From: Seison nebaliae
Lineage: Eukaryota
Direction of reading: 5' to 3'
NCBI GenBank assembly: GCA_023231475.1
Contig: JALJEE010001061.1
Span: forward strand, 1-64,000
DNA: 64,000 nucleotides
Positions within the stretch are counted from its first letter, which is position 1. Each line of letters starts with the position of its first letter. Of this stretch, positions 149 through 57,155 are shown piece after piece. A program made the position numbers and the translations under genes. The notes under the pieces are model-generated. The model ran no database searches, was not told the origin of the DNA, and saw nothing but the letters and a program-made list of their open reading frames with translations.

Positions 149-2865
149 TCAATTTATAATATTGAGAAGTGGGTTGTCGGTTGAAGAATTGATATAATTT
201 TGAATGGCAACATTTAATCGTTTGATTAATTCATCGTTCTCTTCATAAAGACCGGTATGTAACAACTGGTCACGTTCTCTTATTAAATCCTTTAACTGAT
301 CTTTATTTGTCCCAGTTTTCTGACGATTAGTGGAATTGTCTAAACGTTTTTTATCTTCATTCTCTAATTCTCTCTGTGATTCTTCTTTCGCTTTTTTCAA
401 TAATTCGATTGTCTCCGCTTCTTTCTGATTTTGTTTCAATTCCTTCAATTCCTTCTTCTGATCTCGTGCTTCTTTCTTCCGAATTTTTAGCAACTCCGCT
501 AAACATCGATTCAATTCATTCTTATATTGGATTTTAAATCTCTCCGATTCCATTAACTTATTCGACAAATCACTCTATTAAATACATATTAAAATGAGAT
601 AAAGAAATGATGAGAATAAAAACATTTTCTTGTGTCAACTTCACAATTTGAGTTTGATAATTCGATTCTTTCGGAATTATTTGTTGTCGTAAATTTAATA
701 ATTCCTGATCAGAATTCTTCCTCGTCTCATTTAATCGATCTTCAGTTTGTTTCAACTGGAAATCATTAAAATTAAATTGGCAAATTGAAAAGAAAAACTT
801 CAGATCTCAAGAATTCTACTCGTTTCTCTAATTCCACATTCTTCAGTCTAATTCAAATAAATTTTTAAAGTTTCTTTTTTAAAATTTATTACGAATTGAA
901 AAACTTTTCTATTTCCACTAAATGTTTCGTTTCGTCCATCATTATTCTTCTTTCTTCTTGAAATTCATGATCTAATTTATCTGCTTTCATTCTCAAATCG
1001 GATTGTTTCTCAGAAATCTAATTTTTTCATAATCAATTCCAATTTATCTTATTTCACTAACTTTTAATGTTTTCTTCTTCATATCTTCTTCTTCTTTCTG
1101 TAAATCATCAAATAATAATTTACTCCGTCTTTCCAATTCACTATAAGCAGTTATCTATGAATTCAAATAAATTATTAATAATAAATTAAATAAATAAAAC
1201 TTTCTTTTGGAGGAATGTTTGTCTTTCATGTTCACGCTTCCGAAACTGTTTCGCCATTTCTAATAATCGTTGAGATTCAATAAATTCCAACTAGAAAAAA
1301 AAATATAAAAAAAAAATTTTTTTAAATAATTCTACAAATAAATTTGAAATAAGAAAAAAAACTTTGACTAAAAATTCTTTTTCTTTATTCTTCTTCCACA
1401 ATTCCAATTCATAAACGGCGTGTAATTGTGTGTGAACGTCAATTGGGAGGGAATTCTTTTTCTGATCAGAAATCTCAGGACAAGTCATCACTTCTTTCTG
1501 ATAATCGATATTTTCCGTGGCGTCTTTATCCATCGATTTTCTTGATAATTTACTGAGTGGAAAAATCGATAAATTTTGTGGAGTGGCATTTTGATCGATA
1601 TTATTATTATTTTCTTCCTGAACGGTAAATTGATCGAATGTTTCAGTTTCGGTAATTTCTGTCGGATTATTTTCGGTGGTGAAAGTGGGAGAATTTCTCT
1701 GTTGTTTATGGAATGATAATTGAAGTGATAATTTCCCGAAGAAATGATACGAATCGATTTCTTCACATTTGACAGGAATTGATAAATTAAATAATTTATC
1801 AGAAGAGAAATTTTCTTTATTTTCATTTTTCATATTCGATGATAGATAAGTTGACGGCGGTTCAATAGTTGCATTACCGATAATTGGAAATTGATTATCA
1901 TCTTCGACTAATTCGATTCGTATATTTATCGAACTATTCAGCAACATATCATTATCGAGTAATGGAAGATGATTTCCCATCGTCATCTCATTCAATGCGG
2001 CTTCGGTAAAAGAATTTTCAATTTTCATGGGAATGGTAAATTGAATAGGAAACGGTTTCGTTTCGAACATCCAATTTCCATAATTGAACGATAATCGAAT
2101 TAATTTCTCTTTCTTATTTTTCATCTCCTTCAATTGTTGTGATGTCAACATTTTGACGAAAACGGGCAACGTCTCATTCGGATACATTTCCAACGACATT
2201 AAATTAATGGAAATGAAATTATAATCGTACCGTTTTGACGATATTCCATTCTTGCTCTTAATCGTCCGATCGAGATTTCTTAATAAATCTTTTATTTGAA
2301 AATCACTTTCTGTTTCGTTCACCGTTTTCTCTTCCGTTTCCATATATAAAGCTAATTGAATTTGTGGAGTACTTTTGTTGTCTTGTCGAATTGGACAATT
2401 GAGAATTTTATTCCAAACCGGTTTCTATTTCACATAAAGGAAATTTAGAGGAGAATTTAAATAATGAGAACTTTATCTTCAGCGTTTTGAATTCCTGAAT
2501 GAACATTTAAAACGATATATCCTATCGTCTTTTTACTATGACCGTTACATCCATAAATGTGAATCTGGAACAGAAATTAAAATTTTTTAAATATTTCATG
2601 AAATTTTGAAAAATTGAAATGAAAGAACTTTAATAGCGGAACGTTTCATTCGATGTGATTGATATTGTTGTTTATTGAGCGACCAGGCTAATTCCTGTTG
2701 TATGAGAATTCGAGTTAATATTTGACTAGAATTACATGGAATGGGATCGATTGCCAATTGTTCATGATCGAATTTTGCTTCGATTTCTAACGATTCAAAT
2801 TGGAATTCAATTCCACGAACTTCGTATAATGAAATGACGAGTAAAACTCGTTCATCTTCCATCAT
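149..2865 (-). CDS. CEP120: Centrosomal protein of 120 kDa (C2 domains + coiled coil), 9 exons
   Basis: N-terminus LLVISLYEVRG..EAKFDHEQLAIDP..QELAWSLNKQQYQSHRMKRSAIK|IHIY..TIGYIVLN..|KPVWNKIL matches the CEP120 C2A domain. YELELWK..FRKREHER and the C-terminal LIRERDQLLHTGLYEENDELIKRL match the CEP120 tail. Eight short GTT..AG introns join the ORF-track pieces in frame. Confidence 0.85.
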
Positions 2866-3149
2866 TGATCTCGCCAAATTAACATGTGATGAGAATGTCT
2901 AGAAGTAAGATGAGAAATATAATAAATAATAAAGGATGTTGACTTTCAAGAAGAAATTGTCAGGAAAATTGTACGAAAATGAATTGAAAAAAAAGAAAAA
3001 TAAATTTCTCTTAAAAAAAAATTGAATGAACAATTCAATTGAAAAGTCAGAAGAAAAAAGAAAAGTTTTTTTTTGGAAGAATCTTTTTTTCTTTCTTTCT
3101 ATTAAGTATCATTTCTATGCATTTTTCGTGCACTATTTCTGCACTCAAT

Positions 3150-3794
3150 TTAATTGGTACTATGGAGAGCACGTAAGAATTCCCCGTGACATGTCTCAAC
3201 ATCCAAAATCATTTCGCGACATTCCTCCTCATTCAATTCGCTCGTGGCTAACGGTAAATTATTCAATTTGTCGTACCATCCCAAAATCTTCTCTCGACTT
3301 TCTTGATCTGATGGAAAGATGGAATTGAGTTTGAGGAAGAGAGCTGATATCTCTCTCACGTCATGAATCAGTTCACCTTTACTTGTTATTTCTAATTTCA
3401 ATTTATCCATCACCGTAATAAACAATCCGACAATTTCTGCTATTGCTGGTGCTAAACCGGTTTTATCACCAGGAATCGTTATTGGACGACCATCACGTAT
3501 ACGATCTAACGCTGATGGACATTGACATCGATTCTCTGCGAGAAATTTACTCAAATCATCCAAATTCTTTCCCGCTTCTTTCGCAGCTATTTTTACCTGC
3601 ACTAGCAAACGGGAACATGCGGCGGTGTAGTCGTTCGGTTGGATGAGGTCGCGACTATACGCCTTCTCTAATGATTGCAATGTATTGATGACGGCATAAA
3701 GATCAGCTGCGTTATCCACATGTTTACGTTCCCGAGCGTTCCGATATAATTTCACTTCTTGGAACATCTCGGAGTCAAGACGACCAGTTGCCAT
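3150..3794 (-). CDS. VPS28: ESCRT-I subunit VPS28, intronless
   Basis: FQEVKLYRNARER..ADLYAVINTLQSLEKAY..YTAACSRLLVQ..CPSALDRIRDGRPITI..FITVMDKLKL. First ATG at 3794. Confidence 0.95.
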   Translation of the reverse strand: MATGRLDSEMFQEVKLYRNARERKHVDNAADLYAVINTLQSLEKAYSRDLIQPNDYTAACSRLLVQVKIAAKEAGKNLDDLSKFLAENRCQCPSALDRIRDGRPITIPGDKTGLAPAIAEIVGLFITVMDKLKLEITSKGELIHDVREISALFLKLNSIFPSDQESREKILGWYDKLNNLPLATSELNEEECREMILDVETCHGEFLRALHSTN

Positions 3795-5625: not shown

Positions 5626-8399
5626 TCAAATGACGATGGAAGAAAAGAAGAATTCTTTCAACGGAATTTTCATTTGTGCGCTCATCTTCCATAATATCAA
5701 TGGCAGTTTCAACGAATTCACCATCAATCGACCATCCGTTTTCAAAAATTTTATTCTATTCTCATCATCTCTCATCAACAAATAGAATATATCGTCGCTA
5801 TTTCTGATGAATAAATATTTCCCATTCAATTCCTCCAACATATGATGATGTTGAGCCACGTGAGTAATGTCGATTTCTTTCTCCTCCAAATTCACATTAC
5901 CTTCCATCACACTTCGTCCTGACATACCGATCGGTGAGTAACTTCCAATGAAATTGAAACTATTCAATCTCGGAATAAATAAATGGAAATTTATAAAGGA
6001 ATAATCCGTTTTTACCAGATCCATATAAATCCAACTGAAAAAATTAAATTGAAGAAAAATTTAAATAAAATTTTCAAAAAGAAACTTGTTTGTTATAAGA
6101 GAATAAACATAGAAATGTTCGATCGAATGAACGAGAAAATGATCGTTGTCGATTCGGTTCGCAAATACTTCCACGTCCTGTAACTGTATCGGCAATATGG
6201 TCAATATTCTCGATTGTAAACGATGACAATAAGTACAAGAAATTGTAATTTCTTCAATTTTCTCTTCATATCTTGAAAAGTTTTGAAAAATGTGCTTTGG
6301 AAAAATTTTCAATTTTTAAATTTACAAACTTGAATCGATTTCCTTTCCCACCAATCACGATGATTCGATATCGTCGACGATTTCTCTTACATCTTTGACA
6401 TTTTACATCTAATTCACGTTCGTTCTTGAATAATAACGAATAACATGACGTGCGACGACAATGCATTGACGAACAGATGATTTCTTTAACTTTCATCTAT
6501 TTACAATTAAATATTTATTAAATATAATTTTAAATAAATAATTTTAAATGAACCGGTTCCTTCTTCTCAAAAGACAATTCGAGACAATGAATCGCTTTCG
6601 TTGGATAAGTTTCCAATTGACATCTCACCGGATTGATTCCACCTGTTAATACGACATTCATTTTGATGGAATAAATGACGGAAATTTAACCGATAACATA
6701 AATTTTGTTTTCTATGGAAATTAACGAGGCGTATCGTCTCACAATCGTCAATTGATCATAACAATTCCAATAGTCTCTATTATAAACGACGACTGATAAG
6801 GAGATTTAATTTTAAATTTAAATTTAAATTCGTTAACGATGATTGTCGAATAAGAGAATGAAATAATCTCTTAAATTCTTTTGGTTATTTCCATGTTCGA
6901 TTAAACAGATCGAATAAACATCTTTCTCGTCATCCAAATGAATGTTTGAACTGGCATTATTCCCCGATTTGTTTTTAAAATTTCTTAACGGATTTAAAAA
7001 ATTCGATTTCGCCATTACCGAATTGGGATTGAAAGTTAATAAGTGTAAAGGCGGATGCTTTCTTCCGAATTGAAAAGAAATGAAAAAAATTTGATCAATA
7101 CGAATCAGTTAATTCTTATCCAAAAATTCATTTAACTTTTTATGTGGACGAATTTGCATATTATGATTTCCTTCTAATAAACCGTCGAAATGATAATCAA
7201 TTGATTGTGGTGTATCATCGAGATGGAAGAATGTTTGACTATCATCATGATGGAAGTATGTCTGACTATCATCATGATGGAAGAATGTCTGATTATCGTC
7301 GACATTGAACATCGTGTGATTATCATCATCGAGATGAAAGATGGTTTGATTATCATCATCCAGTGAAAATTGATGAGCTTTTGATGAATATGTGAATAAA
7401 TTTCCTGCTGCATTTGTATCATCCATTAATTCGGTTTGTTCATTCTCCTCATGATCAGTGAAGGAAGAATTGGCGATATCTTTCCAATTCGTTTCCATTC
7501 CTTCATTCCTCATTGGAGTGAATTCCAGAGAATAATGATGTGGCATTTCCAATAAAGCTCGATAAAGATCATCGTTATAAATCAGATAATATTCACAAGC
7601 GAACACTTTCTCTTCTGTCGTGAAATCTGAAAAATTTTTAATTTTTTTAAATTTAAAATTAATTTTTAACATTTCTCTCTTTTACCGATACATTCGTCGA
7701 GATGAGCTAACGGGAAAAAAATCTCGAATAATCTCAACCATTCGTATGGTGTGACATGATTAGCGAACATGACACGATGTTTCCGCAAATAATAGAAATA
7801 TGCGATAGCAATATCGCGATCATGTAAGGCGCATGGTCGAATATGTGAACAGATCAATTTACTGAATTGATCGATAGCGAATTGTTTCTGTTCCCGATTG
7901 AGGAATGACGACGAATAATTCATCATGTGAAGTATGGCGTCCTCGTCATACACTTCTTTCAATGTACTATTGATGTAAGTTTTACTAAATCGTTTCAATT
8001 CTTCCATAAATGAATTTGAAAAAAAAAAAGAAAAATTAAAAAAAATTTTTTTTTTTAAATTGAGAAAAATTTCCAACTCTCTAGAATGAATTTGAGTCGT
8101 TGGTGGATATAATAGAAATCTAAAATTTCCGCAGTTCTCAACAATTCTTCCAATTGCGGGAAGGTCAAACAAAGTGCTGGATTGTTTGTCAATGAAATTA
8201 GATTGTTGAACGACTCGACGGAAACGTCCTTAAACTTGATCTTTTTAAACCTCAAATCCCTAAATCGTTTGTGAAGATAAGTAAAATGAACTTTATCCAT
8301 ATTCTTCAGAAGACTCGTCAGTTTCGTACTGTTATTCTTGAGAATATCCAAATTCATTCGGATCGTGCCCGTTTTCAATTGAATTGTCGAATAATTCAT
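5626..8399 (-). CDS. BTB-BACK-Kelch (KLHL-like) protein, multi-exon, highly divergent
   Basis: BTB-like N-terminus (IKFKDVSVESFNNLI..LEELLRTAEIL), BACK-like TEEKVFAC, and Kelch-like RRYASLISIENKIYVIGG and SMHCRRTSC..RIIVIGG. ORFs 8055-8399, 7666-8172, 7109-7672, 6833-7015, 6266-6496, 6061-6312 and 5626-6024 join in frame through GTT..AG introns. The exact 3' end is uncertain. Confidence 0.65.
7215..7365 (-). repeat. Coding tandem repeat of 27-30 bp units (DDxQTxFHx) inside the KLHL-like gene
   Basis: Translation DDDNQTIFHL DDDNHTMFNV DDNQTFFHH DDSQTYFHH DDSQTFFHL DD. The DNA unit atcatcatgatggaag recurs. Confidence 0.85.
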
Positions 8400-9617: not shown

Positions 9618-10578
9618 ATGAAATATTTATTCGTCATTCTCTGCATTTCATATGGTTAGCATGAATATTTAATCATTCCATTTAATCTTCCTTCTTAGCA
9701 TTTGCATATCCTCAAGATCATGAATGTCTCTCAAAAAGTGGAAGTTGTTTACCATCAGCTTCATGTCCGAACCATAATTACAAATCGGGTTTATGTCCAA
9801 ATGCACCTAACAATGTACGTTGTTGCTTTTCAGGTGACATTTTTTAAATTTCCTTCAAAATTCATTTTACCAAATAATCTGCAGCTCATAAACAAGACCA
9901 AGAATGTGTGAGTAAAGGAGGGAGTTGTTTGAGTAGTTCGGATTGTACGTTCGGCTCGACTCAATCCGGTTTATGTCCAAATGCTCCTTGGAATATTAAA
10001 TGTTGTTTACCGTCCGGTAGTACCGGTACCGTTTCAGGCTCATGTTATTATTTAATTAAAATATTATATTTAAAAATTCAAATTATCAGGTACTGTCCAT
10101 TCTTATCAGAATAGTCAATTCATCGGAAAGAGAGCATATGTGGAAGATGGTTTCCGATATGCCATGGACAAAATGAATAGTTATGCTAAGTCATGTGGAG
10201 TTCAAATTTATATCACCTCATCATTCCGTGTGGTGGGCAATATGGTCAATGGAGCTGTAGTGACACCAGCTTCACAGTCTAATCATCATGTGGGAAAAGC
10301 GATCGATTTCAATATCGCCGTTAATGGTCGTATTGTTTGTAACAGCAGCTGCTTATTGAGTTAATTTAAATTAATGGAATTTAATTTCATTCCATTAAAT
10401 TACAGGAAAATCACATAGTGGAGCAAAATGCTTCTTAAACAAAGTACAAACTGGTGGATTAACTTGGGGTGGAATTTGGTCCACAGCCGATCCAGTACAC
10501 ATCGACGATCGAGCTAACCGTAAATCTGGTTACGCTGCCATGAAAAAACGTTTACAAACGTATTGTCGAAACCTCTAA
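9618..10578 (+). CDS. Secreted peptidase M15 (LAS-type Zn metallopeptidase, CwlK/Ply500-like) with two N-terminal six-Cys repeats, 5 exons
   Basis: Exons 9618-9654, 9699-9833, 9885-10043, 10090-10359, 10406-10578. Signal peptide MKYLFVILCISYAFA, two C..GSCL...C...SGLCPNAP.N..CC repeats, then ITSSFR..SNHHVGKAID (H-x6-D)..LTWGGIW..DPVH. Confidence 0.8.
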
Positions 10579-10773
10579 CTAGTCAAGAGAGAACGAGTAA
10601 GAAAATGGAAAGAACTTATAATTGTTTCCTTTATTTTTCTGGGAAATAAAATAAACTTTCTTCATTTCAATAATTATGTGACATACGTTTCGAATGACGT
10701 CAATAAATTATTCATTCGAAGGAGATGAGTATGGATAAAATGAGAAATTTGTCTATACCTAATTGACGGATTG

Positions 10774-13025
10774 ATGAGATTATGTTGTTTCATTATGAGC
10801 TTTTGGTTAATTTGTCTCCTAGTCCTCGTTCTTCGAATTAATCCATTGACAATCGATTTTAATAATGACGTTCAGTCATCGTTAAAGGAAATTCAATTTC
10901 TACGAATACAATTTTCTGATGTCATTCCAGCTAATAATTTCCTTTTGTTTTATCGAAATGGAAATTTGTCTATCAATTCAACAATTTATGAAGAACTTCA
11001 ACAAGTTTCTTTCATTACCATTTTAATTCATAATTGATGGTTTTCGAAGAATGAATTAATTTGGTCAGTTCGATCGTTGAATGATATCAAATTACAAATT
11101 GTAGAGGAGAATATCGAAATTGAAATAATGCATAAGATTTCAATTGATAATATAAATAATTTATCAATAAAATTTATTCCATTCAATTCCAGTTAATTTC
11201 CACAAAATTTCTTCTCCACAATAAAATACATGGAAAATAGAACTAATTATTCAACAGGCCAATAAACAATATGACATCTTCCCAATACAAATCAGGAATG
11301 TAAATAAAGAATCATCTTTTTTGAAATTAATGGAAAATCGGTATTCCTCATATGCCATCCAATGGCACTATGGAAATGTTTTCTATAACGACATCTTACT
11401 AAGAAGGAGTTTGTATTAAATTTAAAAAAAAATTAATTAAACAATTTAAAAATTATTTCAAAACAGATATCGGTTACATAGAAAATGTTCAACAATTCAA
11501 TTTTGTTTTTGCAGAAACCAGTTCAATTAATTTATTACGATCAAGTTCAAATTAATGGAATTGATTATTATTCTATGGAACATTATTTTATTTTTTAAGA
11601 TTTTCATCTTAATATCAATTATCTCGTTTATTGTACCACCACAAATGATCTCGATAACACGAAACGGATTATCTTCATGAAAAATAACGTCATTAATTTT
11701 AAAAGTTTTTTTAATTTTAAATAATTTAAATTTTCTTTTTCTTTTAGATCGTCCAATTATTAATTTCGCTATTCATTTCCGCTCAAGTTTATTTCATTAT
11801 AAAAATTAAAATGATATTCACTTATCATTCACTAATTATTCAGCGGTTATCAATGGATATTCCTTTAGAGCCAATCGACATGACGCTTGTACCAATGTGG
11901 TTGACTTGAACAATTATTTTGGATACGACCGAAATTATACGAGTAGTAAATTGGTGAATAAGAGAATGATGGTATTTGAATGTAATTATTTTATAATAAA
12001 TGAATTAATTGGAATGTGGGAAACGAAGAAAGTGATATGGAAACTAGAAAATGTTCAAAAAGTAACTAGTCAATCATCTATTGATGAGGTGAAAGAAGGA
12101 AAATCGTATAATAAAGAAGTTGCGATTGTCATGACTTGTGCAATAGTTCTAATAATAGTTGGTCTTTTTTGCTGGGTTCTACCAATTGAAAAAGAAGAAT
12201 TGAACACATTAGAAAGAACTCATAGTACGGCACTCTCGTCTATTCATGATATTAATGAACGTCAATTAAATCTCTATACATCGTCTGGTAGTAGAAAATC
12301 GAAATCGAATGAGGAAATTGTGAAATTGGGAGGGAAACTTTTAAAAAAGAAAATCTCTTCATCAATCGGGAAAGATTTAGATAAGAAAGTTCCTTGGAAA
12401 CATTCGGAGAAGAAACCGTTTCTCGACATATTTCAAGAAAATATTAGATATATCATCGTCATCGACGACAATCCAGAAACTTATTGTCGAAAAGTTTCCA
12501 TATTTTTTCTAATTTCCTTTTAATTTTCCCCCTCAAGTTATCGAAGCGACAAATCCCGTCTGAATTAGGATTGAAATTTATCGATATTTTGGAAGACAAA
12601 GATAGAAAATTTATCTTTCATCCAACAAATTATGAAACTGGAAAAGAATTCAAATTATTCTCAACAAAGTCCATTATCGGAATTGGAAGTCATTCATTTC
12701 GAGGATGTCTCAAATTTTATCAAATCTCCTTACCCTCCTCCTTACGCAGTGTGCTCATATTGTTGAAAATAATTAAGATTTGTCAAAACATATCAAATAA
12801 ATGTCAAATACAATTCATCGGGTTCCTCTCATTTTGGAAGATATTTGGAAAATTAATATTTCTATTTTTCTAGTAAAAAGGAGAAAAAATCGTACAAGAA
12901 TGTCGTCGATTTATTTAGTAAAACTTATTCTCATGTTGTTCTAAAAGTTCGTCTTTTCCTCAATCAACTTTTCAATTCTTTAACAATTATAGAAAACGTG
13001 TCGATCATTCAATGATTATTATTAA
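10774..13025 (+). CDS. Hypothetical multi-exon single-pass membrane protein
   Basis: Hydrophobic N-terminus (FWLICLLVLVL), a later TM segment (VAIVMTCAIVLIIVGLFCWVL), and several ORF pieces separated by AT-rich GTT..AG segments. Exon structure only partly resolved. Confidence 0.45.
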
Positions 13026-41164: not shown

Positions 41165-41501
41165 CCCATCTCCAAATCAATTCGACGGATTGTCCTCCAA
41201 ACGGTCGTTTTCGAATATTCTAAATGGAAACGGTCCATACCGACTTTAACGTTGGAGTTGCGGTTGCCAAAAATAAATTTCTTGATTTTTAGTTTCGTAC
41301 GTCCGTTTATGAAAGATTCAAATTTTCTTTTCTTCAATCAAACGTAACCTTTCCGCTTTTACTAATTCGTCCCACTTTGGCCAAAGAAACAGCTAATTCC
41401 TTCGAAACCTGCCTTATATTTTTGTTGCCTTTATAGGCATGTAAAATAGCGGATTATAAATCTTGACTTAGTTTTTTTGATTTACAAACATTGTTAGTCA
41501 T
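41165..41501 (-). mobile_element. Decayed Tc1-family transposase fragment (N-terminal paired HTH region only)
   Basis: MTNNVCKSKKLSQDL*SAILHAYKGNKNIRQVSKELAVSLAKVGRI..*, a frameshift, then ..YSKTTVWRTIRR. This resembles the Tc1/Sleeping Beauty N-terminus (KSKEISQDLRKKIVDLHK..VSISTVKRVL). No DDE domain seen. Confidence 0.7.
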
Positions 41502-42295: not shown

Positions 42296-45200
42296 TTAAG
42301 AATTCCACATTTGTGATTTTTTCACTCTGAAAATTGAAGAAAATTGAAAGAAAATTATAAATTGTTTAGAATAATGAAATGATGTAAAGAATTCGATGGT
42401 TTTAGAGAAAATAATTAATAAACGTTAATATTGATTGTTATTGAATATGAAGAAAATGATTGTTAGAATGTTAATAGAAAGAACTGTGAAACAATTCAGA
42501 AGACCAGGTTTTTATGATAAAACTAAAAGAATTGTTTGAATGGGAATTAATCAATTCAAAAACAAATCATAAATCACCAGTCTTCCAAATCGTCAAACAT
42601 GATATTAATTGATAATTGGGGAAAGAATAAAATTAAATTTTGTACTAACATCTCTTGTAGTGAACGTTGGGCGTCAGCTATCTGTTTATCTGTTCCAATT
42701 AATGTAATTATTCGGTCATTTCCTGTTTCGTAAGCGGACAGAACGATTTTAGTATTTGTTTCTATTGAAACTTTCTGTAACTTCTCACCTGTTTCTCCCA
42801 GTAAAATTGGTGCCAACTACAAAAGAATAATTGAAGAATGAACATGAAAAGAAGAAGGAACAGCATTTTCAATAGTGACGGCATTCCGTACCAATTTCTC
42901 GTTTTGAGTCAAACGACGACTGTCATAAGTGAATTCTCGATGGCACCATAATTTACCGTTCATTAAGGATTTGGGTGCGTTTTCGTAAGAGTTTTTCATT
43001 GGTGTAAAACTCGACTTTTCATTAGTTGGCATTCTCGGATATGGTTGATAAATTGGGAATTGACATCTTAAAAAGAAATTAAATTTTAATAAATAATATT
43101 CAATTAAATAAAAGAAATTTTAAAAAATCATTCAAACCGGTCACTATTATCAGAATTTTGAGTGTTCGGATTAGTATTCCTGGGATTGACTGGATCGGTC
43201 AATTTGTCTCCATCATATCGATTGTAAGGGATAGATGATGGTGGTTGGGGGAAACTATCGTTTCTTAACCGTTTGTTCGATGCATATGGATGGACGTTAG
43301 AGATGGTGGAATTTCGGTTGGTTGACATCGACGAATTTGGATTATATTGAATCGAATTATGATATTGTTGCATAGGAGGCTGATTATTGAAATTCGATTC
43401 TCCTTTGTATGTTTGATCGGAAAATGGTGAACGAGGACGATATCGTTTTCTTTCACCGAACGACGTCGTAGCATTTGATGCTGTCGGACCACCATAAGTC
43501 GGATCCTGTTGATAAAATGGATAATTTCGTTGATTATTATATGATCGAATTGTGTCTGTATTTTTATACGACATAAATTTCGATGAATCTCCACCATCAT
43601 AATTGCTTTTATTTCTCATTCCATTATTATCGTACATTGACGATTGGAAATTGGTGTTGCAGGAATAATTTAAAGAATTTCCTTCAAAATTATGATTTTG
43701 ATTATTTCGTTTCAAACTCTGTTGTCCCATATTCTTCTGATGATGATATGGATCTTTACTCTTGCCAACATCTTTCACCAGATAATGATCATTCGTCATC
43801 CATCCACCATACAAATGTGCGAAATCCTCGTTATAATTGAACGGATCATAATTCGTAATTGGTCCTCGTGGCGGGGCGAGTCGACATGATTCCATAATTT
43901 CTCCGATACACTTCTTTATTTCGTCTAATTTGCCTTGTAGACGAACAACTCGATCCGTCGACGCCGGACAACATTCGGCGTAACATCGTAAATCGATTTT
44001 ATATGACTATCATGAGGAAAATAATTGAATTTAGGAAATGTGATTAATAGATTAATTAATAATAGGGAAAAAATTGATTAATCAAAGAAAAACCTTTCTT
44101 AAATTTTTTATTTTATCTCCGCGCTTCCCAATCACACATCCAGCTTGTGATGCATGAAGTAGAAATCTGACGTCATGATCGATCTCTTCTTCCTTCTTTC
44201 CTACGATATCCAATTCGCGCTGTTCAAAAGATGGTTTTAGAGAAAGAGAATGAGATGATAATATACTGACTTCGGATAAAAGAACGTAAGCATCTCCCAA
44301 ACACTTCAATGTGTCATCTAATGCACCTTCGATTGTCAACAATCTGAAAAAGAGGAAATATTTTAATAGGAGAAAATTGAGGAGGAGGAGGAGGAGGATG
44401 AAAAAGAAAGAAATGAATTAGATGAAAATGATCGAATTGAAGGAAGAAATAAAGGTTGATTAATTGAAATTTAAAAGAAAATTTTTTTCTCATTCACAGA
44501 TGGTGGGAAGATTTAAGGTTGGACTCATCCTTGTCGTCAAAGATGATGAGAGCAGAAGATGAAATGAGGTTAACCGTTCAGGGCCCTTGCAATCCGGTAC
44601 GTTAACTCCGACATTATTCTATAGCGTTGATGGTTAAGGAATGGTCGGTCGGTCGGTCGGTCGGTCAGATAGATAGATAGATACCCATTACCATAGGAAG
44701 ACAGCGGCGTTCAGATAATGGTAATGGTGAGATTTCGGTGATGACGGTATAAGGGACATCATTTATCGTTCAACGTAATCGATCAATCAATCGATATTGG
44801 ATTTCATTAAATTTTCAGTCAATTCGATAATTTTTTCAGGAATTCAAGAATATAATTTTTGTTCAGGATAAATTCAAGAATATATTTTTCGTTCAGGATA
44901 AATTCAGGAATATATGAGGCCATATCAGGAATTGGAATTCAATTGCATATTAACAATTTGCAACATAAATAGAAAGAAGAAGAAGGAACAAGGAAAGATT
45001 AATTAACGAATTCGTGTTACTCTTCTATCAGTCTCCTAATCATTTTAACCATATCTCATCGTCATTATATGAACGATTTAGAAAGACAAGGGAAATGGCG
45101 GATAAAAGTGTGAAGAAAAAAGAAATTCTACTAACATCACTTCGCAATCGTTTGATATTGGTCCCGCCTTTCCCGATCAACGCACCAGCATGCTACCAAT

Positions 45201-47048
45201 TTGAAAGAAGATTATGATGAGGGAGAATATATATCGAAATGAAGAATTTATCGTTAGAAATGTTCTTTGTGGAAAGCGATTGAGATGAAAGTGAAATGGA
45301 AAGAAATTCGATAATTCCATAAAAATGCAAAGAAATGACGAGAGGAATGCATAAGAGAAATTATTTTGAATGGAATTGGAGAATAATCATTCACACACAA
45401 ACAATACATGTCATACAAATAAAATAAACGCTGATTGTTGCCATGGAAACTGGTGGAATGACTACATCGATTCACTTACCATTTTCCATTCATCCACGCG
45501 ACCTCATTATATTTTTGTTCATAATCAACTTCTTCTTCTTCTTTCCGTCTCTTCACAATCAATGGACGATCAAGAAAAAAAAAATCAATACTTTCTTTCA
45601 TTTCGACAAACAAATGGAAATTCCACAGCAAATCTTCTTCATCGTAATCAATTTTGATTAGATGAAAGAAAAATCTCTTTTCCCAAAAATATTAAAAGGA
45701 AATTGAGGAAGAAAATTCGATGTAATTCTTTCTGTGCACAAATGGAGAATGCACAATCATTTTCAAACAAGTTGCACGAAATCATTTATTAAATTGTTAC
45801 CATGGAAACGTTTGGTATGACAACTGATTTTATTTGTATAACATTTCCTTCTAACTACAATCATACATGTCACATCTCTCTTTATCAGACACATGGACAG
45901 GAGAAGTGCATTTTCTATTATCAGTCCATCTAAACACTACGATTAACATCATGATAATTATGGTGGAATTACAGGTGCTTTCATCATTCTCCTAATAGAT
46001 TCGATTAGAAATTCGTTTCTATGGAATCTGATCCGGAGACGAATAATAATATTCTATTTCGCTCAATAAACAAATTAACGTAGCGACAATAAATTGGACT
46101 CGTATTTCCTCGTATCAGAACAATGAGGAAATTAGAAGAACTCGCTAATTTTATCGAAATAATCAAAAAGAAACTAACGCGACTGGGAACGAGTAATCGA
46201 AGTAGAGTGTCATCTTTGGAACGAGCACGTTTTCCTTTCAATGATCGTCGATATGATTCCGAATTTCTCGAATCATGTGACCGTTTCCCATGATTACTAT
46301 TTGAATGATGATGATTATTGGGAAATCGATGAGATCGATTCTTTTGATGATTTCCAGAATTATTTTTCCTGTTTGATGTTTTTTCGTCGTTTTTCCGATT
46401 AGCATTTTTCTCTCTTAAATTTGATTGTTCTCCATCAGTTTTCGTTGTAACTTCTTCTATTTTCGACGTTTCATCGATTTTCGGTTGTTCTTCCTTCGAT
46501 TCTGTTGATATAGTATTCGTCTGATTTTCTGATGGATTTGTTGGATTGATTATCGAATTATCTTCATTCAAATTTTCTGATTTCTCCTTCGGTTTCTCCT
46601 CTGATACATTTATGGAAGTCTCGATATCTGATTCCTGTTCCGTTGTCAAATTTGTTACAGGAATATTATCTGATTCTTTTTTTATTTCAGTCAATTTCTC
46701 GATATCGATGTTGGTGTTTTGATCACTTTTTACCATATTCTCTCCTGTATCTGTCGAATTTTCAACTTTATCGACAACTTCAACGGAATTTATCGCTGTT
46801 TCTTCAGATTTCATTTCCGTTTTTTCACTCTCTCTTACCATCTTCTCATTTGCTACAGGATTGTCGTCTTCCTTACAATCTGCCGTTTTTCCATCTTTTA
46901 GGGGATCGTTGGGCGATTGTTTCTCTCCTTCACTTATCGTCGCGTCGTTTATAATTTTTGTTTCTATTTCTCGTAAGACGACAGCAGAATTGTCTTCTAC
47001 CTTCATATCTTTCGTTGATTCGTTTACTTGGTCGACAACTTCCTCCAT
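42296..47048 (-). CDS. HNRNPK: Heterogeneous nuclear ribonucleoprotein K (3 KH domains) with an acidic N-terminal extension, 9 exons
   Basis: LRLLVPSR|HAGALIGKGGTNIKRLRSD|..VPDCKGPER|LLTI. KH2 VRFLLHASQAGCVIGKRGDKIKNLRK|..ECCPASTDRVV..YDPFNY..YGG. KH3 VTIENA|LAPILLGETG..DRIITLIGTDKQIADAQRSLQE. The last exon is inferred. Confidence 0.9.
44643..44682. repeat. Compound microsatellite (GGTC)n(AGAT)n in an hnRNP K intron
   Basis: ggtcggtcggtcggtcggtcggtcagatagatagatagat read directly. Confidence 0.9.
44841..44914. repeat. 30-bp tandem repeat, about 2.5 copies
   Basis: aattcaagaatataatttttgttcaggata / aattcaagaatatatttttcgttcaggata / aattcaggaatata. Confidence 0.85.
45437..45450. promoter_or_regulatory. 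RFX X-box-like motif
   Basis: GTTGCCATGGAAAC fits the X-box consensus GTTNCCATGGNAAC. Confidence 0.5.
45796..45809. promoter_or_regulatory. RFX X-box-like motif, second copy
   Basis: GTTACCATGGAAAC, followed directly by a degenerate third site GTTTGGTATGACAAC. Confidence 0.5.
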
Positions 47049-47439
47049 TACGTATGACAATGATGATGGACAATATATCCAATGATTTGATGAGTCGTCT
47101 AACAATTTGGATAAATTGGATCGTTTCAATTGCACCTTCCTATCAAGATGAATGAGAATAATTTCCGATTTTGCAATGCTTTATCTGAAGCTTTAACGAA
47201 TATATAATATCTGAGTAATATACAAAACAGAAAAATTGATGATTAGAAGAAATTGAACATCTTCCCCAAAATTAAATTTTAAATTTTAAGCCTTTATCAA
47301 AATTCTTAACAACAACAGTGGAAATTGGTTGAAAGTGGACGAAATGAGTTAATTCGTATTTCAATTTTCAAATGCACAACGAATTGTTTATTTTGTAATG
47401 TATTGTTTGTTTGTGTATTGAGAAGACAAAGGAAGAAAT

Positions 47440-50400
47440 TTATTTCATCAACTTTTGTCTATAAGCAAAATATTTAATTTGTAAATTGCCACATTTGGCT
47501 AGGGCGTCACGGAATGTTTTGTGATTCTCCAAATTATTTTCAATGACAATTTTCACAATTCTATCACCGTCATTCGAGTACATGAGTACGAGCAGAAGGA
47601 ATTGTTGTTGGAAATATTGGATATTCTTCTCCAAATCATCCATCTCATTCATATGTAAATTCCTCTCATAATAATTGAGAATTCTCCAAATAATTTTGTA
47701 ACTAAAATAAAAATTAGAATGAGAATCGAATGATAAAATTGAGTGAACTATTTGCAGATATGTTCGATCGTGTCATTATCGATCGTTCGATGTTTATTGA
47801 AGTGATATCGATAAATATGTTTCAATCGTTCACTACAATCAACATACTCCAAATCTTCGTTATTTAAGATGATTCCCAATAGATATTTGTTCAATGAAAA
47901 TTGAATGAAAAGAATCGAATTCCATTTATCTTCTTTTCTAATGTCGTTCATCTTCGATTGATTTAATTGTTCCACTAAACGTTTCCAATCTACATTCTGC
48001 ATGATTCGAGGAAAAATTTGGAAAATATTCAGAATTTGTTCATGTGCTTGTTTAATATTAGATATCGAATTCATCAATAATAAATAATCTTCCGATATCT
48101 CGTAAAATGTTGTTATTGTTGAAATGAGTTGATAGAAGTGACAAGAATATCGATGGAAATCTTCCATTTCGGTTGGTGGTCGAATGATTGAAATGATCAA
48201 ATTATTTCCATTCATATAAATTTTCTCTTCTATATTTATCCGTTCTTTCTCTTTATTCTTCCATTGTTTATAACTGTTCATATCTCGAATCATTTCGTCC
48301 AATAAATGAGTTTGAACGCGAATAATTCTCATATAAACCGAACATAAATCCGTCAATTTCCGATCCTCCAACTATTGAAATTTGAAAAGTTTGAAAAACT
48401 TAAAAATTTTTTATTTATTATATTAACTTTAATAAATGTTTGAAATGACTTATCCATAATATTACTCAAACGTCCATTTGCATTCACCAATAGATCTGGA
48501 AGAGAAAATTTATTTATTATTATTTTATTAAAATTTACCGATTAGATTGTTAGTTTGGAAGAATTTGAAAATTGATTGAAAATCACAAAATTGTCGTTGA
48601 GATAATAAGGAATATTTATTGTAAATACTTCTTAAATTGCAATCGGTTTTATTGTTTACCGTTTCCTTTACCAATTTCAATAATTCCACATATTCGTTCT
48701 CGTTATCGAAAATGTATCTCACTTTCAATTCGATGGGGAGAATATAATTGAGATAACATTGTTTCATACTGTGAAGTGCTCCTTTGAAATATTGAATGGC
48801 CGTAAATTTTTCACGATTAAAATACTTCGCCGCTTTAGTGAGAATATAATCATATTCGTTGATGAGTTGATTTTTCGAATTTTCCACTTTATTCTCTTCG
48901 AACATCAACCAATATTCGATGTATTCCAAATAAATCGTTTTGATATGTTCGTCGTGTTTGGCAGACATGGTGAGAATGATGGATTGGAAAAGATCATATT
49001 TCCATAAAGTCGTAAAGATTTTATTCACCGTTTCACGATGATGAGATATCATTGAAATGATTTCCACGATATAAAACAAGAAATTAATATCGTGATTAAT
49101 TTTCCAATGTGAATGTGAGTCATATTCGATGGATGATAATGATAATTGTGCGGAGTAACTGGATCTCAACGTTTCTTTCTTTACGAATAAAGTTTCACGT
49201 TCAATTTTTAATTTTTTCGATTTTAACGAACTTAAAATGATGGAAAATCGATTGATATAATTGAAAAGAATACTGAGAACTAATTTCATTCCTCGAGTAC
49301 TTGACGCCAATTCATGAACAATGAGAACTAATTCTAATAATTTCAAAGAATAATTTAATTGTTGTTCCGTTTCTGGAAATTCGATGACTCTTGAAAATAA
49401 TTTATCTGCAAAACATTCATAATTTGAGAGTGATCGTAAATGTCGATTTTCCAATCGTTCCCGTATCGATAATTCATCGATATCTTCCTGACATTTATCG
49501 ATACAAATATATTCAGTTGATCGATCAACTGTATCACCATATTCCGATTCGAAAGTCGTTTCATATGACGATAAATTCGATCGAATTGGTAATGGAATAT
49601 TTGATTGATTTAATTGGAATTTTTTCTGATAGAATGACGCAATTTCTGTAGAGAGAATATAAGAATAACATTCATCATTAATTTCACTCACATTCTTCAT
49701 TTGTTGACTGATTGAAAAATAATTTTCTAATGATAATCGATTGACAATAAATGAACGTCCAGTACAATGACAGATTAATTGATAAACTGTCAAACGTCTC
49801 AATTCATACCATTGGAGTAGAGTGAGATCTTTAATCGTGCAAAAAGTGAGAAGTAAAATAAAATAATTTTTCATAATAAAATTATCATTTTCGATGAAAT
49901 GTTGAAGAATAAGTTTTATATCATAATAAGTGTTCTCCACCGAAATATCGATCATTTCTCTCAATTGTCCAATTAAATTCAATTGTTCTTTATCTAATAT
50001 CGGATCATATTGTTGTTCATCTTCCATCAAATCGATAATATCCAAAAGTCGATGAAGAAGGATAAAAATGAATAAATAATCAGGAATATATCCGATATTT
50101 GTTGTGAATTTAATCGCTTCATAAATCATATTACGATGTATCATTTCTTCAACAATTTTTCGAATATATCTCTCAATCTTATTCTGATATTCATCCTCTT
50201 TCACAAATTTAACGATTGTAATTTTGGAGCAATCGTTAACGATCTCCAAAAGATCTCCATTCACCACAAATTTGAAATTCGACGGAACTTTCTTCTCAAT
50301 CTGATCATTCCATTTCTCCAGAATATATGCCATGTATAATTGGAAGATATTCTCCTCTAAATTGTCGTTGCGAAAACAGATGTACGCGGACAACGTATAA

Positions 50401-53208
50401 ATAGCGTCGGTGGAATTTTCGATGATTTTATCGACGAATAAAATGAAATTGATAAATTCTTCTTTATATTCTCTCAATAAGTCTTTGGTAGATAATTCTT
50501 TGAGTTGGTTTACATTCCACATGAATTGATTCTCATTCTTCATCGAATTGGAATTAAATGATTTATAGAAGTTTTCGATCGTTTCGATCAATTGTTCAGC
50601 TCCGATGTGAAATTTCAAGACAATCTCCGTCGAATTATTCAAATAAAAACAATTCACTAAATACTCATCGAATTTATCGACATTATCATCGAATATTACT
50701 CTCGTCAACGATTCAGCGATGGCATATTGATTTTTAGAGCAGAAATAAATTTTCATCGATTCATTCAATAATAAATCGTCATGGACATTCTCTTTCATTT
50801 TCTCAATAATGTCCCACACTCGACATTTTTTCTTCGCACACAACAATTCTTTCGTTGCTAATTTCTTTATTTCTCTCAATAAATAATATGATTTTAATAA
50901 ATAATTCCTTTTCTCATTTTCATGAATGTTTTCGATTTCCTCAAAATTCTGTTTCATTGGATTCCAAAATAATCCATTTTCTGGCAACGTTAGCAAATAT
51001 TCGTTATAAGAAGAAAAAGTGAAATTATATTTCTTGTCATTCTTGCCCATTTTCTTCGTTAACACTTTCAATGGGAGGATTGTTATGAAATAGATAAATT
51101 GTGTGGAATCGGTCCAAGTGTAAATGAAATTTTCGAAAATTAATTTCGACAACATCTCCCCAATTTCCAAGAGCATTTGAAAGAGATTTTGATCGATCGA
51201 TTCGTCATTTCTCAAATGGAATTGATTTGTTAAATATTCTTCGAAAATAATTTCGGCAGTTGAATAATTTTTTAAAAATAAAAAATTATCATAAAATAAT
51301 ATCAATCTCAATAATTGTTTCAATTCGATTGATGCATATTCATTATTCAGAAAGAGTTGGAGGATTAATGTTAATGACGGTAATTTCCCTTCCAATATGA
51401 TACATTCGATCACCTGTTTCGTTGTAACACAAATCTGACGACGATGATTTAATGCGAATTTGAAATATTGTTCTTCGAATCGCTTATCGTAAAAGATGAT
51501 CGTATCCTTCGAATTTAAACTATAATTATTTAGATTAGGTAGAACAGTTTGATAATTTAATCGATGTGCTTTTTGATGTTCTTTCAATCTCATCAAATAA
51601 TGGAAAATATTTCCTTGAATATTTAAGAGAATTCGATATTGTTTCTCATCGAATGATGATCGATGAAAAATTTCCGTTTGGTCATGAATCCGTTTGATAA
51701 TTTGTTCAGCTGGAAGAATTTTTCCTAACGAGAAAATTCGAAATTAATTCACAGAAAAATAAATTTGAACTTTTTTGACTAATATTAAAATTTTTCTTAA
51801 AAAAATTATGTTCGAATTGATTATTCACATCGAATAATTTGACTTTCTTCGGTGTAATGTAAAATAAGAAGATCGACGGCTCATCAATCGACAAATCCAT
51901 CAAATCATTATGTGTGTCGTTACTATCCGATCGATATACATAAAGTGAACTATATATTGTTTTTTTCCTATGTTTTCTTCTTCTCTTATAATCGATCAAT
52001 TTCCCCTCCAAATTCTCAATCACTTTCAATGCTAATTGAATAGAATTCAAATAAATTTTCTTTTTTTCTATCGTAAACTTATTGAAATGTCTCGATTCCA
52101 CTTTCGATGCCACTTCATGGAATAATAATTCTAAATCACATTTAACCTAAAAATTAAATTGTCATTTGATAATTGTAGACAAATAAGAATAATCGATTAA
52201 CATCACTATATGGATATTGAATGAGTTGGATGAAAGTGTAGAAAATGATTTGGATCAATTGTAATTGAAAACGATAATTTAAATGTTGATTATCGTTATG
52301 TTTGAGAACAGAGATTGAGACACCGATCAAAATGTGTGATACTCGAAATATATTCAATTCGTGAAGTTTCCGACAGATTTGCAGGATACACAACCAGAAT
52401 TTGAAAACGTCGATTTTTTCTAGAAAATTTCTTAAATCATTCACATTCAAAAAAATGATATGAATATGATTCAAATAAGATCTAATGGAAAAGTGAATAT
52501 TTTATTTTTATTTCTAATAAAAACTTTCCGATACATTTCCCCAAAAATTCCGTTAACTTAATCACAGTTTCGTCTTCGCGGTTGATATGTTTGGGAATTA
52601 ATTCGGCTTCCGTCGAAAATAAATAAATGATAATTTCGATTAAATTTCCATTATCGAATTCTGAAAAATTATTCTCATCAATCTTTCCTGAGAGGAGGAA
52701 ATAGAAACCTGATGATAATTTCAATTTGTTGACGATCTTAAAGAAATGATGAAGACATTTGATTTGAGAAAGTAAATTATTCGATTCATATTTCATCTCA
52801 CACTTCACTTCCGATTTCTCCATTTCAAATCGTCTCAACAACAAAAGAAATATGAGAATCGAATACAATTTAATTTCGGATTCATCCTTTCCCGATAATC
52901 GGATAAATTGTCGGAATAATTGACTGCGAATTTGTCGCACAGATCTTTAACAGACGAAACAAGTAAATTTTGAAAAAAGTTATTAATTTCAACATTTTCT
53001 TACAAGAATCATGATAATAATTATCGAAGGCAATAAATGGATGTTTTCCATCGATAATTGTCGATAATAAAATTTTTAATTTCTCACAAATCTCATTCGT
53101 TTCCAAACACAGTCCAATATCAGATGATGGCATTCGGTTAGCTAAAAAGAAATTCTTTAAATTATTCCCTACAATTCACTAACAGTTAATTTCTATTTCA
53201 TTCTCCAT
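47440..53208 (-). CDS. SPG11: Highly divergent spatacsin-like protein, multi-exon
   Basis: IRKIVEEMIHRNMIYEAIKF..FIFILLHRL, LLELVLIVHELASSTRGMKLVL, IISMISHHRETVNKIFTTLWKYDLFQSI, VDWKRL and ALAKCGNLQIKY occur in the same order as recalled spatacsin C-terminal motifs. The 5' exons are less certain. Confidence 0.55.
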
Positions 53209-53629
53209 CAACACAACATTAATTTCTTTTTTTCGATTTATCTCCAATTAAATTAGCTGAAATATATTTATTAAAATTCAATTAGAATTCTTATTTACAA
53301 ATGACTCGTTTATTTACTTATGTTCATTTGTTTATTCCAAATGTATAAGAAATTAGAATAAAATTTATTAAACATTTTTTTAGAATGAAATTTTTGAAAA
53401 TTTTTTTTGGAATGAAATTTATTAGAATTTTTTAGAATGAAGTTTATTGGAATTATAGGATGGAATAAATAATTCGACCAAATAAAATGTGAAAATTATT
53501 CAAAAAAAAAAAGGGACAAAAGAAGAATTTAATTAGTAATTTTTGAATTTTTTTTATTTCGAGATTTCGTTTCTATTAGAAGTAATTTAGAATGTTAAAT
53601 TTAATTTTTATATTTCACATCTCTAAATT

Positions 53630-54094
53630 TCATTGAGTTGCAACTGGTTCGTCTTTCAAATTGAGTAAGAGAGATCGTAAACGAGAAGAATCCTTCTCAC
53701 TCTTACCCAATTTTGGATTGAACTCACAAAATTTAGCTACATCCTTCCAATCAATTCCTTCCGAATTTGATTTTTTATTGGATTTGATGAAATCTTGCTG
53801 TTCCATTAAGTTCATTTGATATTTCTTCTCAATTTGATCCTTTCGTTTCTCATACCATTCTTCGAGATCTTTTTCTGCTTGTTCCGACATCTCCTTAATT
53901 TTAATGGCTTCTTCGGCATCTTTCTTTTCTAATCGCTCCTTGAATTCACGACGCCATTGTTTCATTCGATCGGGCTCTTCACTATGCTCCTCTGGCATAC
54001 CGTCAATAGGAGAAGTCTCCGGAGCTAAATTTGGAAGTGGTGTAGAAGGTTTTGAGTCATTGGTGGAAGAAGACGGGCCAAACAGATCATCCAT
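53630..54094 (-). CDS. Clathrin light chain, intronless
   Basis: EEPDRMKQWRRE..LEKKDAEE..EQAEKDLEEWY..WKDVAKFCEFNPK..KDSSRLRSLLLNLK. Confidence 0.93.
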   Translation of the reverse strand: MDDLFGPSSSTNDSKPSTPLPNLAPETSPIDGMPEEHSEEPDRMKQWRREFKERLEKKDAEEAIKIKEMSEQAEKDLEEWYEKRKDQIEKKYQMNLMEQQDFIKSNKKSNSEGIDWKDVAKFCEFNPKLGKSEKDSSRLRSLLLNLKDEPVATQ

Positions 54095-54488
54095 TTTCTT
54101 CAATTAATCAGTAAATAAATGACAAATTCGAATACGTGAATAGTGTGAAGTCACGTTACTTTAATTTTTTCAATAAGCTTAAAATTTGAATTTTCCGATT
54201 TTTCAAAAAATTATTAAAATAAAAAAAATTAAATTTTTAGAAAGTATTTTTTAAAAATATAAACATAATTTCATCGAGAAGAAGCTAAATTTTTAAATTG
54301 GGAAATTTCTTTGATTTTAAATGGGTAAATCGAAATTGAAATTTGCGTTCAGTTATATCATTCTTATGGGAGATTGTTGTAAATCAACGTCTAATTTCTT
54401 GAATTTATTACCTCCAACATCCTGTTGATTTGAAAAGGAATTTAAAGAAATTAATTCGTCATAATTTTCTTTTATTATTCAAGAGAGA

Positions 54489-55265: not shown

Positions 55266-55548
55266 CCAAAAAAAAACAATTGTTATCCTTTCCATCAGAC
55301 AAATCAATTCGTTACTTTTTTATTCAAATTTTTTTGACATTTGAATTTTAGATAATTTCAATTTTATAATATTTTTATTTTTTTCAAATTTCCATAATTT
55401 CATTTTTCTGTTGAATAGTTTCGTTTTTGTTGAATGTCGTTTAAAATTGAAATTTAATCGATTTAATATTCGAATTTAATTAGTTGGACAATTTTCTTTT
55501 CTCTTATTAGACTTTTCTTTTATCATTTTTTTCACACAATCGTAAGAT

Positions 55549-57155
55549 ATGGGTTGCTGCATTGGCAGTTTAGTGAGCAGTGTTAGTGGACAATTGCTGA
55601 TTGATGTGAACTAACTTCTTTTCTAGTTGGCGTGTTGTTGTGGGACAGCAGCATGTAATTTATGTTGTGCCTGTTGTCCCTCCTCCAGGAGTTCAGTGAT
55701 GACTCGTCTCATGTATGGAACGATGATTTTTTTGGGAACTATCTTATCCTGCATCTTCTTATCACCAACCATAAAGAAACGATTATCAAATGTTTAATAT
55801 TTTATTTTTTGAAATTTGAAGAAATTTATTTGAATTTTTTTAGAATCCATATTTATGTGATGACGATTTGATCGGAGAGAAATGTTATAATTTAGTCGGA
55901 TATAGTGCTATCCATCGAGTGACGTTCGGTCTGGTCAGTGTGTTCTTCTTACTCGCTCTCATTATGATCGATGTGAGAAATTCGAAAGAATGGAGAGCTT
56001 ACCTGCAGAACGGTTTTTGGTTCTTCAAATATGCCGCATGGGTTGGAGTGATGGTTGGGGGATTCTTCATTCAAAGTGACATCTTTACTCAATTTATGCT
56101 CATTCTCGGATATATGGGAGCGTTCTTATTCGTCATTGTTCAATTAGTTATTATCATCGAACTAGCACATGTATGGAATGGGAAATGGATGGAAGAAGCT
56201 GAAAATAATAGAAATTATAAAGTCGGATTGATTTTCTTCACCGTCGTCTTCTTCGCTTCATTCATCGTTATCACAACATTATCTTATGTTTATTATACTA
56301 AAGTTATTAAATTTCTGATATTTAAAATTAAAAATTTCCTTCCAGACTGATGATTGTACTTTACATAAAATAATAATTTCCGTCAATTTAATTCTGTGTA
56401 TCATCATTACAATTGTGTCTATTCTTCCAAGCATTCAAGCAGTCAGTCCTAGAAGTGGAATATTCCAACCGATTCTCGTTTCCGTCTATGTCATGTATCT
56501 CACCTGGTCGGCACTAACGAGTAATCCACACCGAAATTGTAATCCAACAATCATGTCGATTTTGAAAGACGATCTCAATTCCACTCATTATAATTCGACA
56601 CATTTATATTCGAAAAATACTACAGGACAATTCAATCCTTATAGTCTCGTTGCAATTATTCTTTTATTCCTCTCACTTTTCAAGAGCATGTTAATATTCT
56701 CTTTTACTTAATTCATTTATAACGATTCTTCTAGATTTACTAGTTCCACATCTGACACAACTAACATGTTGATGAATCAAGAAAAAACTATTTTAGGTCT
56801 TTATTTCTTTCGCTAATTTAAATTTATATAATTTAAATTATTATAATTTCGTAGGACAAGAAACTGCACAGAAAGTTGCCGATGATGAAGAAGAACAAGT
56901 CTCTTACAATTACTCGTTCTTTCACTTACTTTGTCTTCTCGGATCGTTATATATGATGATGTCCTTAACCAATTGGAATAGGTTAAAGAAAAAAATTTTT
57001 TTTTTGAAAATTCCATAATTTTTCTCATTAGCACCAAACCTAATTCGATGGCACCGTTTTGGATCAAAGTCTCCAGTAGTTGGGTATGCATCCTTCTCTA
57101 CCTTTGGACAACAGTCAATAAGTTGATATGTGATCGTGATTTCGGAGACTTTTAA
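55549..57155 (+). CDS. SERINC: Serine incorporator (SERINC/TMS1) membrane protein, 7 exons
   Basis: MGCCIGSLVSS|LACCCGTAACNLCCACCPS, LVGYSAIHRVTFG, RAYLQNGFWFFK, PRSGIFQ, YLTWSALTSNP, VSYNYSFFH, SLYMMMSLTNW, WIKVSSSWVCILLYLWT, DRDF. Confidence 0.96.

Follow-up and report, generated by a model that had tools for sequence, protein, structure and literature searches.

Introns in a 64-kb window of the genome of Seison nebaliae, a seisonid reported to lie within the rotifer-acanthocephalan clade (PMC8351084), carry an altered 5′ splice site (donor) in which T occupies position +3 in place of the usual purine. The window, by which the whole stretch of 64,000 nucleotides is meant, has a G+C content of 31%. 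Among 72 introns from 14 of its genes the base at +3 is T in 67, A in two, C in two and G in one, a purine, which is the animal U2-type consensus at this position, thus being present in just three donors. This shift is real and strong, lies at the level of the lineage and is not due to AT-richness. Its likely cause, held with somewhat more belief than doubt, would be a change of U to A at position 6 of U1 small nuclear RNA (snRNA), turning its ACUUAC into ACUAAC.

All introns are predicted models from this one window, placed either by exact protein mapping or by reading frame. Exact-translation mapping of nine public proteins (P0001, P0121-P0128), in which any GT or GC donor was permitted and +3 was given no weight, supplied 53 introns, while the other 19 were modelled by hand in CDK11, a TENT5-type gene, hnRNP K and a large unnamed gene. 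Most are 42-60 nt long, with a mode for the short introns of 43-46 nt. Their ends are GT-AG in 71 cases and GC-AG in one, and the mapping, confined to GT/GC-AG ends, found an exact placement for each of the nine proteins. At 18274-19137 the RPL3 exon shows 100% identity to S. nebaliae protein SNEBB_005989, and three further protein matches bear nearby SNEBB numbers. Eleven doubtful annotated introns (10 GTT, 1 GTC) were excluded beforehand, the reasons being gene-fusion joins, a possible 5′ untranslated region (UTR) intron and the unsupported 5′ part of P0126. The public models fuse VPS28 with CEP120 (P0121; window 152-3794, minus strand) and join an M15 gene to its neighbour (P0122; window 9618-13022, plus strand), both of which look like annotation errors. 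The U12-type donor motif, RTATCC, is absent from the 33 donor hexamers listed, and five short branch-point patterns sought at -40 to -8 of the 72 introns were no commoner than in shuffles. Contigs from four of seven sequencing runs over 38500-54150 have no joint at the modelled introns, and three of these runs look like DNA, a result that speaks neither for nor against the introns. Two of 71 introns (8291 and 44270) are also readable as unspliced open frame. Candidate SRPK 5′ introns at about 60.8 and 62.5 kb, which lie outside the 72, may start with GTA.

The sequence-only reading from which this analysis started had tallied 36 introns in nine genes, and an independent recount gave the identical figures of 33 T, two C, one G and no A at +3. 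A further 36 introns, from five additional genes and the 5′ part of an NYN-domain gene, have T in 34 and A in two. The absence of A therefore holds in the nine genes but not window-wide, the two cases being GTAAAT at 48538 (minus strand) and GTACGT at 34675 (plus strand); the latter had already been suspected near that position and is now modelled as TCA/GTACGT in P0126 (a slash marks the exon boundary). After GT dinucleotides that are not donors, T follows in 34% of cases in exons, 41% in introns and 40% in the whole window, with A at 19-23%, and composition alone makes GTT roughly twice as frequent as GTA. Against this background, 67 T of 72 has a P of 6e-21. AT-richness had been dismissed earlier on the grounds that it should favour GTA equally; that reason was wrong, although the dismissal itself stands, the excess of T being far above background.

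It might still be argued that GTT was picked in the modelling, or that T-rich introns have drifted to T at +3. The 72 introns are all models, 53 of them from public gene predictions with clear errors (the VPS28-CEP120 and M15-neighbour fusions), and the twofold excess of GTT over GTA in the window is in keeping with such an artefact. In short introns, however, T is at +3 in 59 of 64 compared with 49% T in intron interiors, and A occurs twice where 21 were expected. A test by frame only was also made on 71 introns (RPL3 intron 1 omitted), each GT-AG pair up to 45 nt away that keeps the frame open being considered. A single frame-compatible GT exists in 29 of these introns, and it is GTT in 27, GTC in one and GTA in one (P 4e-9 against the 41% background); any GTR option is available in 27 of the 71 only and none in the other 44. 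In addition, ten junctions are fixed by comparison with human or mammalian proteins of solved structure, where they fall in ungapped blocks or between adjoining residues, namely RPL3 17954, CDK11 14144 and 14435, SERINC 55582, 55792, 56303 and 56690, CEP120 2628, DHHC 16533 and NYN 40591, and all ten have T at +3. An artefact is thereby largely refuted and is considered very unlikely.

The remainder of the donor looks like that of a site read by U1 in its normal register. All five introns longer than 300 nt start with GTTAGT, as had been proposed, with TAGT at +3 to +6 in four of the 67 others (P 9e-6); the first long hnRNP K donor, earlier given as 46158, is correctly positioned at 46178. Along the sense strand of the gene bodies, 25,114 bases in all, modelled donors account for eight of eight copies of GTTAGT and 11 of 16 copies of GTTAG, whereas none of 16 GTRAG, including three perfect GTRAGT, is a modelled donor (P 7e-5 for the contrast). 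GTTAGT itself makes up eight of the 72 donors and GTTTGT three. At +4 the base is A in 33 and T in 20, and A in all five long introns, whose donors thus have the +4 A, +5 G and +6 T of the normal U1 register. G at +5 is present in 24 of 72 (6.7% background; P 2e-11) and G at +6 in none. Pairing of a normal U1 one base out of register (GT-T-RAGT), which rare human sites display, would likewise produce donors that begin with GTT. It predicts G at +6, and with +6 G absent, +5 G frequent and the long introns reading GTTAGT it is ruled out in this window.

The one GC-AG intron, in the NYN gene (40591-40634, plus strand; 44 nt), had been counted as a GT donor, but actually reads TCG/GCTAGT, with G at -1 and TAGT at +3 to +6. 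P0128 and a relative with 81% identity, P0129, both read YDDRYVLDIAL across this junction, and in human KHNYN the two halves correspond to residues 94 and 95; with a GT donor instead, the protein would gain two residues and the intron would be shorter than any other in the set. The mismatch of GC donors is reported to be offset by a stronger U1 match elsewhere (PMC3167603), and since this donor reads G/GCTAGT, T at +3 looks like the base that matches. Every one of the six donors with a flaw at +2 or +3 carries either G at -1 or GT at +5/+6, compared with 23 of the 66 others (P 0.003, for a post hoc comparison with small numbers), G at -1 alone being found in four of the six and 12 of the 66.

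On the exon side the usual AG/G context is replaced by AA/A across the 72 introns. At -1 there is no excess of G (16, where codon position predicts 13.9) but there is one of A (40 against 26 expected, P 0.0007), and exons end in AA in 29 cases and in AG in five. At the acceptors 40 introns are followed by A as the first exon base, where 27 were expected, and just nine by G, and position -3 is T in 38, C in 22 and A in 12. No seesaw between -1 G and +5 G was found among the 72 introns (P 0.77), and the relation of AA to +5 G is weak (P 0.08). These A-rich exon ends, with no overall -1 G signal, could be taken to mean that the U1 small nuclear ribonucleoprotein (snRNP) is lost or marginal and that donors are read by U5, through the AA exon end, and U6 alone. 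Loss of U1 is known from Cyanidioschyzon (PMC11732430), and about 35% of metazoan BUSCO genes are reported as missing in Seison (PMC8351084). Nevertheless, the genes are intron-rich with degenerate donors, the flawed donors display U1-like compensation, and the choice of T and not C at +3 would be left unexplained, all of which makes loss of U1 highly improbable.

A change in U1 is the mechanism best supported by these observations, because a single base dominates +3, because the GC and weak donors behave as though +3 U were a U1 contact and because Entamoeba provides a precedent. In the standard pairing U1 ACUUAC is matched to GUAAGU (bioRxiv 10.1101/2022.06.08.495308). Pseudouridine or U at position 6 of U1 would pair with A or G at +3, giving the usual purine, while A at this position would pair only with U, giving one dominant base. 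The remaining U1 contacts (-1, +4, +5 and +6) would be unchanged and called upon in long introns and at flawed sites, with short introns managing on GTT, length and the AA exon end, the last of which likely pairs with the U-rich loop 1 of U5. A change in U6 would be unneeded, as U at +3 can face the G of U6, which has been proposed for Entamoeba. When 33 single changes in the 5′ end of U1 were compared, 6 U>A best separated the donors from 942 decoys (AUC, the area under the curve, 0.84 versus 0.72), a figure that merely restates the dominance of T at +3.

Several points weigh against a changed U1. Rfam detected no U1 or U6 within the window at gathering score, with four chance-level matches at E-values up to 1, and no U1-like 5′ end was found in it. 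With +5 G in only a third of donors (the 24 of 72 above), the majority of short donors form weak duplexes even with an altered U1 (AUC by duplex energy 0.63), and the loss of G on the exon side, where A is enriched, is not explained by one U1 change. A +3 that is almost fixed while its neighbours are weak could mean that the site is checked at the catalytic step. From the literature, donors shifted at +4 are described alongside a normal U1 in yeasts, Giardia, Trichomonas, Thecamonas and Micromonas (bioRxiv 10.1101/2022.06.08.495308), U1 ACUUACC is reported as invariant in 227 Saccharomycotina genomes (PMC10581693), and U6 and U5, not U1, are argued to commit the donor at transfer (PMC11732430).

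Much of this would suit a U1 RNA of normal sequence, with U at +3 set later or by protein, either at the hand-over to U6, whose G faces +3, or through an altered U1C, LUC7 or PRP8. Such an explanation would account for a +3 that is nearly fixed while -1, +4 and +6 are weak, most lineages with shifted donors have retained their U1, and commitment at transfer to U6/U5 leaves room for it (PMC11732430). Roy and Bowser (bioRxiv 10.1101/2022.06.08.495308) also indicate that GUUUGU may pair better with U6 and that the U1C of Entamoeba is highly diverged. On the other hand, the G of U6 ought to accept C at +3 no less readily than U, but C occurs in two of 72 donors against a 20% background; the published uncompensated cases concern +4; and the compensation by -1 G in flawed donors fits a U1 helix. 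A normal U1 is accordingly regarded as doubtful, if still a serious contender. The same T-only pattern would follow if the ACAGA box of U6 had itself changed, its G opposite +3 becoming A, whether or not U1 had changed too, and a U6 box change at the neighbouring position has been reported for Cyanidioschyzon (PMC10581693). This is improbable, ACAGA being described as invariant in the 240 species surveyed (PMC10581693) and as retained by Entamoeba despite its +3 U (bioRxiv 10.1101/2022.06.08.495308).

U1 genes with a changed position 6 do exist in nature, although such copies need not be functional. A pattern scan for them, which a divergent U1 would escape, returned 64 metagenome loci and no matches in viral contigs, and of six loci chosen by eye for an Rfam check three are true U1 (L002, L016, L033) and three are not. 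ACUAAC is carried by a U1 copy of 96 bits that lies beside a normal copy within a U1/U5 cluster in L002 (2877-3037, minus strand) and L016 (2108-2268, plus strand), and by eye also in L010, L013 and L047; the cluster of L002 and L016 we take to be plant-like. L033 (3001-3160, plus strand) encodes a U1 scoring 127 bits whose ACUCAC would match GUGAGU donors, and the locus has no clear genes from which to read them. No position-6 variant among the metagenome loci is attributable to Seison.

Considering the genes in turn, CEP120 (introns within 575-2628, minus strand; exact mapping of P0121) has eight introns of 43-72 nt, all GTT, with donors at 2628, 2471, 1362, 1200, 1061, 904, 798 and 623, the first of these being ungapped against human CEP120. 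The P0124 gene, which has a weak Kelch match (6035-8291, minus strand), and the unnamed gene forming the C-terminal part of P0122 (11005-12992, plus strand) were outside the earlier tally, and each has nine mapped introns, all GTT. The M15 peptidase gene (introns within 9655-10405, plus strand), supported by P0122 mapping and Pfam, has four introns, three with GTT and one with CAG/GTGACA at 9834. Spanning 9618-10580 (plus strand), it is of the D-Ala-D-Ala carboxypeptidase type (Peptidase_M15_4) with two Cys-rich N-terminal repeats, and is possibly of foreign origin in this animal. In CDK11 (plus strand) both introns start at the sole frame-compatible GT: intron 1 (14144-14206, 63 nt, AAA/GTTGGA) lies between exons that meet at the adjoining residues 154/155 of human CDK11B, and the flanks of intron 2 (14435-14843, 409 nt, AAT/GTTAGT) are in register with its residues 228/231. 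The DHHC gene (16490-17095, minus strand) has three mapped introns, all GTT, the 16533 junction being ungapped against ZDHHC20.

RPL3 (plus strand) has two mapped introns: intron 1 (17544-17591, 48 nt, ATG/GTTTGT), for which three other upstream combinations of ATG and donor are equally compatible with the protein, and intron 2 (17954-18272, 319 nt, TTG/GTTAGT), which is ungapped against mammalian uL3. The intron of the TENT5-type gene (28496-28606, plus strand; 111 nt, CAG/GTTCGA) also begins at the sole frame-compatible GT. Four mapped introns, all GTT, are present in the unnamed gene P0125 (31555-32478, plus strand), and four in the 3′ part of the unnamed gene P0126 (34675-35368, plus strand), where three are GTT and the other is the GTACGT already mentioned. 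The NYN-domain gene (38942-40791, plus strand; P0128 mapping) has three GTT introns and the GCT one. SERINC (55582-57031, plus strand; P0127 mapping) has six, of which five are GTT and one is TAG/GTCTTT at 56797, and its first four junctions are ungapped against human SERINC3.

The hnRNP K gene (minus strand) was modelled by hand. Frame and a KH motif place its first long intron at 45193-46178 (986 nt, CGC/GTTAGT), which is followed by one at 44619-45135 (517 nt, GAT/GTTAGT), by five introns within 42817-44574 with donors at 44574 (GTTAAC), 44270 (GTCAGT), 44093 (GTTTTT), 43137 (GTTTGA) and 42861 (GTTCCT), and by the last at 42327-42649 (323 nt, GAT/GTTAGT); its KH domains were identified by Pfam. 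In other animals mir-7 lies within an intron of hnRNP K. Here the last intron of the gene contains a mir-7-like hairpin (42483-42601, minus strand) with a long loop and a fold z of -4.5, matched weakly by the Rfam mir-7 model (19.5 bits, E-value 1.8, 38 extra loop bases). Long loops have been reported for Seison miRNAs (PMC12553114).

The large unnamed gene (introns within 47702-53183, minus strand), modelled by hand from its frame and outside the earlier tally, has eight introns, seven GTT and one TCG/GTAAAT at 48538. It extends over 47420-53200, includes an open frame of 1,071 codons and has no convincing Pfam match; it may resemble spatacsin. A tandem pair of similar short genes at 35774-36181 and 37305-37754 (minus strand) encodes Q/Y/P-rich proteins with a hydrophobic N-terminus, which are probably secreted. 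Outside the modelled genes GTTAGT occurs at 17243, 17407, 24704 and 25944 (plus strand) and at 57394 (minus strand), some copies lying upstream of RPL3 and the TENT5-type gene, and these may mark the start of introns in 5′ UTRs.

None of the literature matches listed describes a GTT donor consensus for Seison, for rotifers or for any animal; coverage of subscription journals was thin, and absence from print is not established. In its available text the Seison genome paper (PMC8351084) contains 'snRNA' zero times and 'splic' once, and its two supplements lack splice, snRNA, snRNP and intron, while the small-RNA paper (PMC12256650) gave no match for splic, snRNA or intron and the lamin paper (PMC10125929), in the part available, refers for Seison to alternative splicing only. 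The pairing of U1 with the donor is among the most conserved RNA contacts of eukaryotes, the compensated changes found in the literature being those of amoebae and a slime mould. If the reading is true, Seison, an animal whose many introns are loosely defined, would show how an entire intron set can exchange a purine for U at +3. It also bears on which snRNA commits the donor, for if U1 is changed then U1 sets +3, and if U1 is normal then U6 or proteins do. On the practical side, Seison genes will be mis-called wherever a gene finder relies on the standard donor model for animals.

In comparison with the animal U2-type donor (MAG/GURAGU; PMC3167603, PMC11732430), Seison shares the GT/GC-AG ends and, in strong sites, A at +4, G at +5 and T at +6, and the exon-led and intron-led classes described for animals (AG//GU and NN//GURAG) seem to be present as well. 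It differs in having T rather than A or G at +3, and AA in place of AG at the exon end. A lineage-wide change of one donor position is also reported in the Saccharomycotina, where a switch between A and U is linked to METTL16 and SNRNP27K (PMC10581693); this, however, takes place at +4, is read by the N6-methyladenosine (m6A) of U6 and leaves U1 and U6 unchanged, whereas in Seison +3 has changed and +4 has not. In Yarrowia lipolytica +3 has likewise moved to one base, G as opposed to the T of Seison, with a GTGAGT donor said to be perfectly complementary to U1 (PMC2911113), but a U1 change in this yeast is insecure because PMC10581693 reports an invariant ACUUACC.

The closest parallel is offered by five Entamoeba species, for which GUUUGU donors, a U1 with ACAAAC and a normal U6 ACAGA are described, another compensated U1 change being noted for Mastigamoeba (Roy and Bowser, bioRxiv 10.1101/2022.06.08.495308). 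Entamoeba and Seison both have U at +3 in nearly all introns (more than 90%) together with GT-AG ends, and the A at position 6 of the Entamoeba U1 (AACAAAC) is the base predicted for Seison. At +4 they part, the base being U in Entamoeba and most commonly A in Seison, with T second, which suggests one change and not two. Entamoeba is also strict, with GUUUGU reported for 88-90% of its donors, where Seison is loose and GTTAGT is a small minority, and the former is an intron-poor protist while the latter is an animal whose genes in this window are intron-rich. We are evenly divided on the wider proposal that Seison is an animal with a rewritten main U1 (ACUAAC, possibly altered at position 9 too so as to read AA/GUU) and a whole donor set to match, attained without the intron loss and the strict signals of Entamoeba.

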